Of a DNA stretch of 64,000 nucleotides, positions 18,001 through 21,000 are shown piece by piece. The position numbers are program-made. This DNA is from a virus. Taxonomy: Duplodnaviria; Heunggongvirae; Uroviricota; Caudoviricetes. The stretch lies in the IMG/VR virus record IMGVR_UViG_2880366365_000011; one strand, written 5' to 3'. Numbering within the stretch: the first letter of the stretch is position 1; each line of letters starts with the position of its first letter.

Positions 18001-21000
18001 GGGCGCACCTCAGCCTTCATCAGTGGTAAGGCACCGGAAATCAAACCCTCGCCCGGCGGCAACACGCCATCGGGTCCGTCTGCAGATACGTCCGTTCGCA
18101 CAATCTCCCTGCTGCCGGCAGCCGGAGAGGCTGCTGCGCAGGGCTGGAGCATTAAGGATGGCGGAATTCAGTTGTCAGATGGTGTATTTAAGATCACCAG
18201 GCAGAGCAATAAAACCTGGTCCCTGACGCATCCGGTGGATGACGCAATTACCCTGCTGACACAGGGCGGCAGACTGACCTGTAAGTTCCGCCTGTCAGGC
18301 GCGCTGACCAACAATCAGTTCGGGCTGGGGATTTATCTGTATACGGATGCTCCCGTTCCTGATGGTGTGGCGATGACGGGTACCGGTAATCCGTTCCTGA
18401 TGTCGTACTTTACTCAGACCACTGACGGCAGAGTGAATCTGATGCATCACAGGAAAGCCGGAAACACGAAGCTGGGGGAGTTCGGCGATTACGGTAACGA
18501 CTGGCAGACGCTGGAGCTGGTGTTCACCGCCGGCAGTGCCACGGTTACTCCGAAACTGAATGGAGTGGCTGGCCCGGCATTCCAGGTTATAAAAGACAGT
18601 CTGACACTGGGACTGAATGCGCTGACGCTGACGGATGTTACAAAAAATGCAGCGTATGGCGTTGAGATAGAAAGTCTGGTGCTGGAGATAAATGCACCGG
18701 CAGCATAATAAAAAAAGAGCCAGCGACTGACCTGAAAGAAGACGCTGGCTAAAAGGCCTTATATGTTTGTAGAGACTTATTTTTCACAGACAGCAATGAT
18801 GCCTGTCAATATATTATCAATATGCGGATTGTTTCAGTTACAGATGCTTTATTAAGGAAAAAAACAGCCAGCACTGACTTTCGGTGGAGAGGTGCTGGCT
18901 CAGAAGGATAGTTGGATTTCACATGATACTTATGCCTGGCGGTATATTTTCTGACAGACAGTGACGGGTGTTGTCAAGATATTGTGTCATTTATAACCTG
19001 AATCAGGGGGTGGCCGGAATGTTATCTGGCATTTTTAGCAGAGCCTGAATGCCATAATCACGGCTCCCGGCGTTGGCCGTCAGTGGGTGACACTGGCGGC
19101 TTTTTTGTTTTTCTTTACTTTCATTTTCTGTCGGCGGTGACGGAGACATACATCAGATGGAAAAAATCACAACAGGTGTGTCATACACCACGTCAGCGGT
19201 GGGGACGGGATACTGGTTACTGCAGCTGCTGGACAAAGTCTCTCCGTCCCAGTGGGTGGCGATAGGCGTGCTGGGGAGTCTGCTGTTTGGGCTGCTGACA
19301 TATCTGACGAACCTGTATTTCAAGATTAAAGAAGACCGGCGTAAGGCGGCGCGGGGAGAGTAAAGTGATGAAGAAAAAATACGAACTGGTTGTTAAAGGG
19401 ATAAATAATTACCCGGATAAGATTACTGTTACTGTGGCACTGGAAATTGGTGGGTATCCGTCACTGTTGTTGCCAGATGTGGCGATTAGTCTTGACCGTA
19501 CTGAAGGTGCCACGCTGGAGTTTTACGAAGCTGAGGCGAAAAAGCAGGCGAAGCAGTTTTTCATGGATGTTGCTGCCGGGTTATGTGAAGGGGATGGTCC
19601 GTTGCCGGAAAAGCGCCCCGTAATTTTAGAGGCGCAGGATGTGTTGATAACCTACAGAGGAAAACTACCGGGAATAATTACGGGTTCTCTGAAGACTCCA
19701 CCGCTGGCCTGAAGACTTAACATATCCAGGGATTTGAAATCGATAAACCCTGATAAATATCCATGAACGCAAAAATCAGATACGGCCTGTCGGCTGCCGT
19801 TCTGGCGCTGATTGGTGCAGGGGCGTCTGCGCCTGAAATCCTCGACCAGTTTCTGGATGAAAAGGAAGGTAACCACACCACAGCATACCGTGATGGTGCG
19901 GGTATCTGGACCATCTGCCGTGGAGCCACCCGGGGGGATGGTAAGCCTGTTATTCCTGGCATGAAGCTGTCGAAGGAAAAATGCGACCGGGTTAACGCCA
20001 TTGAGCGTGATAAGGCGCTGGCATGGGTGGAGAAAAACATCAGAGTGCCGCTGACCGAACCCCAGAAAGCGGGGATCGCGTCATTCTGTCCGTACAACAT
20101 TGGCCCCGGTAAGTGTTTCCCGTCGACGTTTTACAGACGGATTAATGCAGGAGATCGAAAAGGTGCCTGCGAAGCGATTCGCTGGTGGATTAAGGACGGT
20201 GGCAGGGACTGCCGTATTCGCTCAAATAACTGTTACGGTCAGGTATCCCGTCGTGACCAGGAGAGCGCGCTGGCGTGCTGGGGAATCGACAGATAAGCAG
20301 AATATTTTGCTGAAAAATGAGGTTTGCTTACATGGACGGATAACACGAAATCCTGCAAATTGGCAAAATGTAAGTGAATAAAGTCAAAACAGTTGTTTAA
20401 CACTCAGGCACCGTAATGATGCCTTTGTCATTTCTGCGCATCTCACGCGCATCTCACAACACAGAACCTTTCAGGATGACCCTTGAGGATACCGGTTTGG
20501 CTGTCGGTGCCTTTCTGTGGGCTGGATTCCTGTGAGACAAGGTTCATCACTAAAAGGAAATAACCGATGAATATGATGGCCGTGCCGTTTCACGGCAACT
20601 CTCTTTATGTAGTTAACCATAATGGCGAACCATACGTTCCCATGAAACCTGTCGTTGCGGGGATGGGGCTGGCCTGGCAATCACAGTTGGCTAAGTTAAG
20701 ACAGCGTTTTGCGTCAACTATAACGGAAATCGTTATGGTTGCTGAGGATGGGAAACAACGCAATATGGTGTCCATGCCACTTCGAAAACTTGCCGGCTGG
20801 CTACAAACCATTAATCCCAACAAAGTAAAACCCGAAATCCGCGATAAGGTCATCCGGTATCAGGAAGAGTGCGACGATGTTCTTTACGAGTACTGGACGA
20901 AGGGTTTTGTCGTTAATCCCCGTAAAATGAGCGTGATGGAAGAACTCAACCAGGCTTGTGCTGACATGAAACGGGATAAAAACATTGCCAGTGTGTTTGC

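Follow-up and report, generated by a model that had tools for sequence, protein, structure and literature searches.

Two tandem minus-strand units in the nanS-p/holin spacer of prophage Sp12 are very likely paralogous genes for Hfq-binding small RNAs

In prophage Sp12, the spacer that separates nanS-p from the holin gene very likely carries a tandem pair of paralogous genes for Hfq-binding small RNAs (sRNAs), both antisense to the late operon. Both units are real sRNA genes, but they have already been described, unit 2 as a copy of PasA and unit 1 as EcOnc51/EcOnc52. The reading is directly supported by the sequence anatomy, the orthology with PasA, published northern, RIL-seq, and Hfq-dependence data from EPEC, and published Hfq-CRAC data from Sakai; the two promoters, the independence of unit 1, and the expression of unit 2 in Sakai are what we infer. 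The initial annotation had proposed short antisense minus-strand RNAs of about 60 to 90 nt here, which agrees with the PasA northern and Hfq data and with the EcOnc51 CRAC peak, and this reading of the sequence by itself had the strand, the size range, and the promoter boxes right for an experimentally confirmed sRNA locus.

The window is the whole 64,000-nucleotide stretch that was analyzed, and its sequence is that of the Sakai Sp12 prophage of E. coli O157:H7 (100% identity). The relevant features, in window coordinates, are as follows.

16858..18708, plus strand: nanS-p (ECs_2262), a SASA-family sialate O-acetylesterase gene, the upstream flank
18678..18685, plus strand: GGTGCTGG, a complement of the PasA seed CCAGCACC, located in the 3' end of the coding sequence of nanS-p
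~18774->18710, minus strand: unit 1, a predicted RNA of ~65 nt, matching EcOnc51 (Sp12) and EcOnc52 (Sp4)
18707..18942, minus strand: long minor isoform of PasA (236 nt in EPEC), reading through terminator 2 to terminator 1
18718-18750, minus strand: hairpin 1, the unit 1 terminator, AGCCAGCG.CT/AG.CGCTGGCT
18781..18809, minus strand: unit 1 promoter-like element, TTGACA (18809-18804), 17-nt spacer, TGAAAA (18786-18781)
18942->18858, minus strand: unit 2, PasA ortholog, a predicted 85-nt sRNA with a variable 5' body, the seed GCCAGCACCU, and a U7 tail
18866-18900, minus strand: hairpin 2, the unit 2 terminator, AGCCAGCAC/GTGCTGGCT
18949..18977, minus strand: unit 2 promoter-like element, TTGACA (18977-18972), 17-nt spacer, TCAGAA (18954-18949)
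19075..19110, plus strand: intrinsic terminator just 5' of the holin ribosome-binding site, an 11-bp stem followed by TTTTTTGTTTT
19157..19363, plus strand: class II holin gene (ECs_2261), the downstream flank

The spacer is 448 bp long, from the end of nanS-p at 18708 to the start of the holin open reading frame at 19157, and, as first proposed, holds two degenerate repeats, which are collinear tandem minus-strand units. The accompanying statement that no ORF fits them is essentially correct, the only candidates being mechanical ORFs of 38 aa with a GTG start (18806-18922, minus strand) and 30 aa (18763-18855, plus strand). The gene order, with an esterase gene, an sRNA gene, and a holin/lysozyme operon, and the sRNA antisense to both flanks, is that of the PasA/PasC family. 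The only plus-strand terminators found by scanning are at 19013-19030 and 19075-19110, both downstream of PasA; the latter is identical in sequence in both EPEC loci and is annotated "terminator" in phage 434.

The two units share a common plan on the minus strand, consisting of a TTGACA-N10-CTGTCTGT block, an ATAAGT motif, an AGCCAGC...GCTGGCT hairpin, and a run of seven T's. Their best local alignment has a z score of 7.6 against dinucleotide shuffles, with a score that none of 1,000 shuffles reached. The AGCCAGC-N10-25-GCTGGCT pattern occurs at exactly two sites in the 64-kb window (0.00 expected from shuffles), and TTGACA-N10-CTGTCTGT likewise at only two (0.05 expected). Hairpin 1 has a stem of 8 bp, a U/U mismatch, and 2 bp, followed by C and U7 (18717-18710), and a single nucleotide separates its T-run from the nanS-p stop codon; hairpin 2 has a 9-bp stem (AGCCAGCAC/GUGCUGGCU) and a 17-nt loop, followed by G and U7 (18865-18858). 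Both hairpins and both T7 runs had been recognized at the outset, although the range given for the second (18863-18901) is about 3 nt off at its low end because part of the T-run was counted in. A simple terminator scan of 18300-19500 yields five sites where 0.7 are expected and flags hairpin 1, but it misses hairpin 2 because the 17-nt loop is above the limit of the scan. In the IMG/VR prophages, 70 of 79 copies of unit 2 have unit 1 ~148 nt downstream. The spacer itself is present in roughly 700 complete E. coli genomes. Compensatory changes are seen only between the paralogs (unit 1, unit 2, and PasC): stem position 8 switches between A-U and G-C, and stem position 11 is C-G in PasC instead of U-A. 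This covariation evidence is thin, as the hairpins are nearly invariant across ~120 prophage copies.

That these hairpins are terminators or insulators of protein-coding genes, acting bidirectionally for nanS-p, rather than parts of RNA genes, is very improbable. Hairpin 1 does directly follow the nanS-p stop codon, and the curated record of phage 434, which annotates two minus-strand terminators at the corresponding places, labels both simply "terminator." However, there is no plus-strand T-run after either hairpin, the sequences downstream on that strand being AAAAGGCC and CAGAAGGA, so both terminate the minus strand only and cannot be intrinsic terminators for nanS-p; moreover, discrete minus-strand RNAs ending at these hairpins have been observed in published work.

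By sequence, unit 2 is an EHEC ortholog of PasA, an Hfq-dependent sRNA encoded on the minus strand of prophage PP2 of EPEC E2348/69, between esterase and holin genes (Pearl Mizrahi 2021, PMC8550237). With the E2348/69 coordinates of PasA (743499->743415) mapped to the window by alignment and by an exact 3' 45-mer, the two are identical at 74 of 85 positions (87%); all 11 substitutions fall within the first 42 nt, leaving 43 identical nt at the 3' end. The published PasA northern probe GCCAGCACTGACTTTCGGTGGAGAG matches the plus strand at 18868-18892 (25/25), and the seed GCCAGCACCU lies in the 5' arm of the unit 2 terminator. The 45 nt upstream are nearly identical in unit 2 and EPEC PasA, and a three-way alignment shows the PP2 PasA locus to be collinear with the window over the whole spacer; like unit 2, PasA is antisense and 85 nt long with a U7 tail, and it is also followed by a tandem second terminator, which gives the 236-nt isoform in EPEC. 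Unit 2 probably represents the other common 5' variant, of the "PasA-2" type. Folding of the whole 85-nt RNA is no better than that of shuffles (z = -0.51), with structure confined to the terminator.

In EPEC, the 85-nt major and 236-nt minor forms of PasA are confirmed by northern blot (Pearl Mizrahi 2021, PMC8550237), PasA levels drop in an hfq deletion mutant (log2FC of -2.78 by RNA-seq), and it has 41 RIL-seq interactions; it is among the sRNAs of the EPEC Hfq interactome with the most detected interactions (PMC8550237). Unit 2 is absent from the Hfq peak list for Sakai (Tree 2014, PMC4104026), so expression of the Sp12 copy in Sakai is predicted from the EPEC data.

The putative promoters are assigned from sequence. 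Both minus-strand TTGACA hexamers (18809-18804 and 18977-18972) are located where the initial annotation had them, within the longer shared block, and the doubt it voiced about the -10 elements was fair, since the hexamers are poor (TCAGAA and TGAAAA). An extended -10, TGtCAGAAA, is another possible reading of the -10 region of unit 2, and unit 1 has an overlapping alternative promoter, CTGAAA-18-TATATT (18837-18808). A consensus promoter scan called neither promoter, and the EDL933 Cappable-seq data contain, among the entries listed, no transcription start site near either predicted start. The start predicted for unit 2, C18942 (TTGACA-17 nt-TCAGAA-6 nt), coincides with the 5' end of PasA as defined by RNA-seq coverage, and the alignment of nine distinct variants from IMG/VR is variable in 7 of 45 columns upstream of 18942 versus 22 of 42 downstream. 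The 5' end of PasA may also be generated when a longer transcript is cleaved (Zhu, Shabalina & Storz 2026 preprint).

EcOnc51 is reported for Sp12 on strand +, with a Rho-independent terminator and support in three CRAC data sets (Tree 2014, PMC4104026, Table S2), and it and EcOnc52 are given there only as predicted sRNAs, without a northern blot. The coordinates in that paper are offset from NC_002695.2 by about +140 bp after ~1.9 Mb, as calibrated at four loci (AgvB1, EcOnc22-24, EcOnc10, and Sp4, the last with an offset of 0). Uncorrected, they would put EcOnc51 on unit 2, a placement rejected because the four-locus calibration shifts the peak to unit 1. After the ~140-bp correction, EcOnc51 occupies 18698-18774, an interval that corresponds to that of EcOnc52 on the Sp4 copy, whose sequence is identical; the two peaks, with nearly equal areas, span unit 1 from 12 nt beyond the T-run to ~65 nt upstream. 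Unit 1 is identical in Sp4 and Sp12, so the reads multi-map and are not assignable to one prophage. Later literature equates EcOnc51/EcOnc52 with PasA, Table S6 of the EPEC study remarking "Homologues in EHEC (EcOnc51/EcOnc52)" (PMC8550237), whereas the coordinates here are those of the distal unit 1, not of the 85-nt PasA. A full-text literature search for the term "EcOnc51" gave no match.

Two accounts of unit 1 have to be weighed. The first, which we hold tentatively and at not far short of an even chance, is a two-gene array in which unit 1 is a PasA paralog with its own promoter, PasC is an inter-hairpin recombinant, and a role in cis in lysis is possible. The ~65-nt RNA would then have a different seed, GCCAGCGUC versus GCCAGCACC. 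The second, a real possibility at a clearly less than even chance, is a single gene: unit 1 would be a back-up terminator for PasA, EcOnc51/EcOnc52 the 3' end of the 236-nt isoform, and the unit 1 TTGACA a relic of the duplication. It accounts for the minor EPEC form of PasA stopping at the unit 1 terminator, and RIL-seq files the unit 1 interval with PasA as a single candidate (PMC8550237, Table S6); multi-mapping reads that stem from complete loci could make up the Sp4 peak, and 71 of 77 copies of unit 1 are identical, a diversity so low that conservation of its promoter is uninformative. A relic, however, sits less easily with a full TTGACA-N10-CTGTCTGT block at the matching distance from the hairpin, nor does a back-up terminator readily explain why the 5' edge of the EcOnc51/EcOnc52 peak (18774/18775) falls at the start predicted for unit 1 from PasA homology (~C18774). 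Against a single gene also stand Sp4, in which IS629 has removed unit 2 and unit 1 is intact, and the fold of the 65-nt RNA, which is markedly better than shuffles (z = -3.15). As a separate paralogous gene, unit 1 seems not to have been described.

PasC, of EPEC prophage PP5 and phage 2B8, bears on the two-gene array. It has the same promoter region as unit 2 and a similar 5' body, but its terminator is of the unit 1 type (AGCCAGCG...CGCUGGCU) and, just like that of unit 1, directly adjoins the stop codon of the esterase gene, with differences from unit 1 in the loop and inner stem and C-G instead of U-A at position 11. Unlike the window, it is a single unit, with the ~150 nt between the two hairpins missing, and the match of phage 2B8 to the window begins within hairpin 2. 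If there are two genes, PasC would be the PasA promoter and body fused to the unit 1 terminator by way of the near-identical hairpins, an inter-hairpin deletion that looks to be undescribed.

The sRNAs AgvB and AsxR (RF02702 and RF02703) resemble these units in being short, Hfq-bound, prophage-encoded, and antisense to the late operon; their terminator is likewise conserved and their 5' end variable. They differ in lying between a moron and nanS-p, on the other side of nanS-p, and in having unrelated sequence, and homology with them is ruled out on both grounds; their conserved ~42-nt 3' domain has no match at E<=1 in 14000-22000. Rfam 15 has no hit in the spacer, either in a permissive scan of 14000-22000 or in a gathering-threshold scan of the whole window. 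The idea that the CA-rich segments act as sponges for host sRNAs failed for GcvB, the only sRNA tested: RNAduplex pairing of the unit 1 5' end with GcvB (-11.1 kcal/mol) is no better than that of shuffles (mean, -12.0), and the AgvB-GcvB control gives -19.9, a value reached by 1.2% of shuffles. An AgvB-like R1 target mimic in the CA-rich 5' end of unit 1 is thus rejected.

In the proposed mechanism, transcription of unit 2 would start at C18942, ~30 nt downstream of the perfect TTGACA, and most transcripts would stop at the AGCCAGCAC/GUGCUGGCU hairpin and U7 to give the 85-nt RNA, with a minority reading through to the next terminator, 148 nt on, as the 236-nt form. Unit 1, with its TTGACA-N10-CTGTCTGT block, hairpin, and U7, would yield the Hfq-bound 3' species EcOnc51/EcOnc52, which would be either a ~65-nt transcript started at the unit 1 promoter or the distal part of the long PasA isoform. 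The two predicted RNAs look like typical Hfq-dependent sRNAs, each with a terminator hairpin that is preceded by a U-rich stretch and followed by a long U tail, and are expected to work by base pairing; in EPEC, the PasA seed GCCAGCACCU pairs with CUGNUGCUGG motifs found in numerous mRNAs, one of them being that of nanS-p, at its 3' end. The site orthologous to GGTGCTGG is a PasA RIL-seq target motif in EPEC (Table S7, E2348C_0688 and E2348C_1246).

The late (pR') transcript, where it runs from nanS-p to the holin gene, is also a perfect complement of PasA and the unit 1 RNA, which might therefore act in cis on the lysis genes. Pairing with the late transcript or nanS-p mRNA that steers its processing or decay, and tunes nanS-p or holin expression, is unlikely to be their main action. 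Plus-strand transcripts must cross both units, because the only plus-strand terminators lie downstream of PasA; plus-strand spacer RNA exists in EPEC, where a chimera joins 743494-743512 to PasB, and RIL-seq chimeras join PasA to the 3' ends of both esterase mRNAs. Most PasA RIL-seq partners, however, are trans-encoded core and virulence mRNAs sharing a seed-complementary motif (PMC8550237), and the reported esterase site is a brief match to the seed, located in the coding sequence rather than in the region of full complementarity.

PasA, PasC, and EcOnc51/EcOnc52 are all published, and the discovery value of this locus is small. Its value for annotation is that the EHEC CRAC peaks belong to the second unit and not to PasA proper. 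PasA has no family in Rfam 15, and automated annotation therefore overlooks it in hundreds of EHEC and EPEC genomes. Tandem paralogs and recombination between them would provide a simple account relating PasA, its long isoform, and PasC.

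The 471 bases around the spacer between nanS-p and the holin gene match Escherichia coli O157:H7 Sakai NC_002695.2 at 100% (2237233-2237703, reverse strand), within prophage Sp12; the Sakai coordinate is 2256393 minus the window coordinate, and the window minus strand is the Sakai plus strand. By this conversion, the window starts ∼1.4 kb outside Sp12, covers the whole of that prophage, and continues into ∼11.7 kb of the adjoining prophage Sp11. The spacer is present in 698 of 5,426 complete E. coli genomes, at a median of five places per genome, and is also carried by Stx1 phages, H-19B, and phage 434. 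On the minus strand it is organized as two collinear units, as follows.

16858-18708, plus: nanS-p (ECs_2262), coding for a SASA-family carbohydrate esterase
18977-18972, minus: TTGACA of the unit 2 promoter-like block, followed by N10 and CTGTCTGT
18900-18866, minus: unit 2 hairpin AGCCAGCAC...GTGCTGGCT, then G and T7 (18864-18858)
18809-18804, minus: TTGACA of the unit 1 promoter-like block, followed by N10 and CTGTCTGT
18750-18718, minus: unit 1 hairpin AGCCAGCG.CT...AG.CGCTGGCT, then C and T7 (18716-18710)
19157-19363, plus: class II holin gene (ECs_2261)

The tandem minus-strand terminator units proposed in the initial annotation are confirmed, as are its two minus-strand TTGACA boxes, each of which heads the shared block. 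In 64 kb, the hairpin pattern and the promoter-like block are each confined to these two sites (shuffles expect 0.00 and 0.05, respectively), and the best local alignment of the two units has a z of 7.6 against shuffles. The nanS-p stop codon is one base from the end of the unit 1 T-run. The curated phage 434 record (OL657226) has two minus-strand terminators annotated at positions homologous to these hairpins, and also one plus-strand terminator before the holin gene. No T-run follows either hairpin on the plus strand, so they can terminate minus-strand transcription only, and the alternative raised in the initial annotation, that they are bidirectional terminators of nanS-p, is ruled out.

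Although nothing in the spacer matches Rfam 15, unit 2 is PasA, an sRNA of EPEC E2348/69 listed in Table S6 of Pearl Mizrahi et al. 2021 (PMC8550237). PasA is a minus-strand RNA of prophage PP2 (NC_011601.1), flanked by E2348C_0688 and E2348C_0689 (directionality '> < >'), with a major form of 85 nt (743499 -> 743415) and a minor form of 236 nt (743499 -> 743264); these neighbors are a SASA esterase and a holin, respectively. The PasA northern probe, GCCAGCACTGACTTTCGGTGGAGAG (PMC8550237, Table S6), is identical to window plus strand 18868-18892, placing the RNA on the minus strand. The window contains an exact copy of the 3'-most 45 nt of PasA, and the 85-nt form corresponds to 18942->18858 with 74/85 identity, the differences being confined to the first 42 nt. 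Northern blotting confirms PasA in EPEC, where its level falls on deletion of hfq (log2FC -2.78, activating conditions) and 41 RIL-seq interactions are recorded for it (PMC8550237). Zhu, Shabalina and Storz (2026 preprint) describe two variants found about equally often, PasA and PasA-2, that have a common 3' end and diverge over the first ∼40 nt; two main 5' variants of unit 2 are also seen in our IMG/VR sample, and the window carries the one absent from E2348/69.

Table S6 also remarks of PasA, 'Homologues identified in EHEC (EcOnc51/EcOnc52)' (PMC8550237), and we conclude that both of these Hfq-CRAC peaks are unit 1. EcOnc51 is listed at 2237479-2237555 on the plus strand in Sp12, with a Rho-independent terminator flag, in three CRAC data sets and without a northern blot (Tree et al. 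2014, PMC4104026, Table S2). Taken at face value these coordinates would put EcOnc51 on unit 2, but this is rejected, as the Tree et al. coordinates diverge from NC_002695.2 past ∼1.9 Mb. The offset was calibrated at four loci: the AgvB1 probe is 137-144 bp right of the listed peak, the EcOnc22-24 probe is compatible with 124-147 bp at both 2.17 and 2.68 Mb, EcOnc10 reaches a clean terminator only with ∼140 bp, and at Sp4 (1.18 Mb) the offset is ∼0. Table S2 thus agrees with NC_002695.2 at 1.18 Mb, but between at least 1.94 and 2.68 Mb its coordinates fall short by ∼140 bp, such that anyone mapping them onto NC_002695.2 would misplace EcOnc sRNAs. EcOnc52 (Sp4, 1181998-1182075, minus) spans unit 1, reaching 12 nt past the T-run on one side and 65 nt upstream of the end of the unit on the other. 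With an offset of 140, EcOnc51 falls at window 18698-18774, which is the EcOnc52 interval on identical sequence, and the peaks are near equal in width (77 and 78 nt) and area (1.09 and 1.03 million). The published PasA and EcOnc51/52 therefore map onto the two units, supporting the short antisense RNAs first suggested from sequence.

It may be that unit 1 is merely a back-up terminator of PasA rather than an sRNA gene of its own; multi-mapping may account for the EcOnc52 reads, and the EPEC unit-1 RNA may represent the tail of the long PasA isoform, of which unit 1 is the 3' end (743264 corresponds to window ∼18707). At the Sp4 locus (NC_002695.2 1182010-1182135), an IS629 insertion interrupts the spacer immediately ahead of the promoter-like block of unit 1; the holin side is lost together with PasA, but unit 1 is intact beside nanS-p, forming the EcOnc52 locus. 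The unit-1 interval in EPEC RIL-seq (pasA.E2348C_0688.IGR) behaves like an sRNA, with a U-tract of 7 and five interactions, always as the second RNA in chimeras (PMC8550237).

We infer that each unit has its own promoter at its TTGACA block. In unit 2, TTGACA, 17 nt, TCAGAA, and 6 nt lead to a predicted start at C18942, the PasA 5' end from RNA-seq coverage; in unit 1, TTGACA, 17 nt, TGAAAA, and 6 nt lead to C18774, the 5' edge of the EcOnc51/52 peak. Nine distinct unit-2 variants have 7/45 variable columns upstream of 18942 and 22/42 downstream, as a conserved promoter, variable 5' body, and conserved terminator would yield; in unit 1 (6/45 upstream, 6/24 downstream) diversity is too low for this promoter test. 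The -10 hexamers of both units are weak, bearing out an early doubt about this element, and a consensus promoter scan calls neither TTGACA promoter, but instead CTGAAA-18-TATATT at 18837-18808. The predicted starts have no entry among the EDL933 Cappable-seq rows listed, and the PasA 5' end may come from cleavage of a longer transcript (Zhu et al. 2026 preprint).

The related sRNA PasC (PP5, 1290909->1290832) aligns with the window and the PasA locus over all of the upstream region and 5' body, but runs straight into a unit-1-type terminator, AGCCAGCGTCC...GGGCGCTGGCT-T7-ATTATGCTGC, abutting the esterase stop codon, and lacks the ∼150 nt that separate the hairpins at the other two loci. The simplest reading of this alignment is that PasC would have arisen by deletion through recombination between the two near-identical hairpin stems. 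Phage 2B8, cited for PasC by Zhu et al., matches the window only from 18894 onward, within hairpin 2. Unit 1 lies ∼148 nt past unit 2 in 70/79 IMG/VR unit-2 copies with enough flanking sequence, indicating that the tandem arrangement is the norm, and the reverse complement of the nanS-p C-terminus comes after it.

Terminator hairpins predominate in the predicted folds of both RNAs. The 65-nt unit-1 RNA has a fold z of -3.15; the 85-nt PasA homolog has an overall z of -0.51 and a centroid structure of the terminator only. The hairpins are nearly invariant over ∼120 prophage copies, which limits covariation; the paralogs differ at stem position 8, an A-U pair in unit 2 but G-C in both unit 1 and PasC, and at position 11, where unit 1 has U-A and PasC has C-G. 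In the predicted minimum-energy fold of the 236-nt read-through isoform (18707-18942, minus), the terminator 2 5' arm pairs with the terminator 1 3' arm and the remaining arms pair together, as is possible with AGCCAGC/GCTGGCT shared by both stems; this modeled fold would hide the PasA seed differently than the 85-nt form.

Other elements in the window are as follows.

3359-3475, minus, and 55654-55770, plus: ALIL (IS3 frameshift) pseudoknot, two copies
5536-5587 and 51708-51759, both minus: DicF, two copies
12433-12607 and 60282-60456, both plus: sok, two copies
15523-15769, plus: tRNA cluster ileZ, argN, argO, between the Q antiterminator gene and a TciA/TerB-like moron
16548-16720, plus: STnc100-family sRNA (Rfam 101.8 bits), just upstream of nanS-p
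∼16750-16790, plus: terminator after this sRNA
19013-19030, plus: terminator
19075-19110, plus: strong intrinsic terminator, 11-bp stem then TTTTTTGTTTT

Placement of tRNA genes between Q and a moron is usual in EHEC lambdoid prophages. The sRNA at 16548-16720 is of the PasD/EcOnc04 type, and the EcOnc04 probe sequence matches window ∼16685-16715. Offset-corrected EcOnc10 (Sp12) lies at window ∼21958-22014 (minus), on terminator ACTGCTGTG...CACGGCAGT-T7, ∼100 nt past the stop codon of ECs_2255, a DUF3950 gene on the minus strand; it looks like a 3'-UTR-derived Hfq-binding RNA, with a peak area ∼30 times that of EcOnc51 (Tree et al. 2014). No convergent partner of the AgvB/AsxR type was detected in Sp12.

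The 19075-19110 terminator is past both sRNA units, with the holin start codon ∼45 nt further on; both EPEC loci, PasA and PasC, have an identical copy, and phage 434 has a terminator annotated there. It would keep non-antiterminated transcription coming from nanS-p or the moron region out of the lysis genes. The sole plus-strand terminators in the spacer (19013-19030 and 19075-19110) are downstream of the units, so transcripts of nanS-p have a 3' UTR that is antisense to both PasA and unit 1, and plus-strand RNA crosses the spacer in EPEC RIL-seq; the units may also act in cis, as antisense RNAs to the late transcript.

Established knowledge of Hfq-dependent sRNAs, together with the EPEC data, points to the units acting in trans as base-pairing RNAs. 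No published function for PasA or PasC was found in the literature. The reported PasA seed, 5'-GCCAGCACCU-3', is in the 5' arm of the terminator, and its target motif CUGNUGCUGG is found in ftsB, frr, and others, as well as the 3' end of both esterase genes (PMC8550237). The seed GCCAGCACCU is kept in the window, where the matching motif within nanS-p is GGTGCTGG (18678-18685). In unit 1 and PasC the seed is replaced by GCCAGCGUC, so their targets probably differ from those of PasA; different targets are also suggested for PasC by Zhu et al. (2026 preprint). The CA-rich unit-1 5' end, initially proposed as a target-pairing segment, is rejected for GcvB, as pairing (-11.1 kcal/mol) is no stronger than the shuffle mean (-12.0); the AgvB positive control pairs with GcvB at -19.9 kcal/mol, reached by 1.2% of shuffles. 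The feature is already described in the literature, as PasA (including the long isoform) and EcOnc51/52, with PasC related, and the minor additions here are the reassignment of EcOnc51/52 to unit 1, the view of the two units as tandem paralogs, and the proposed origin of PasC by inter-hairpin deletion.
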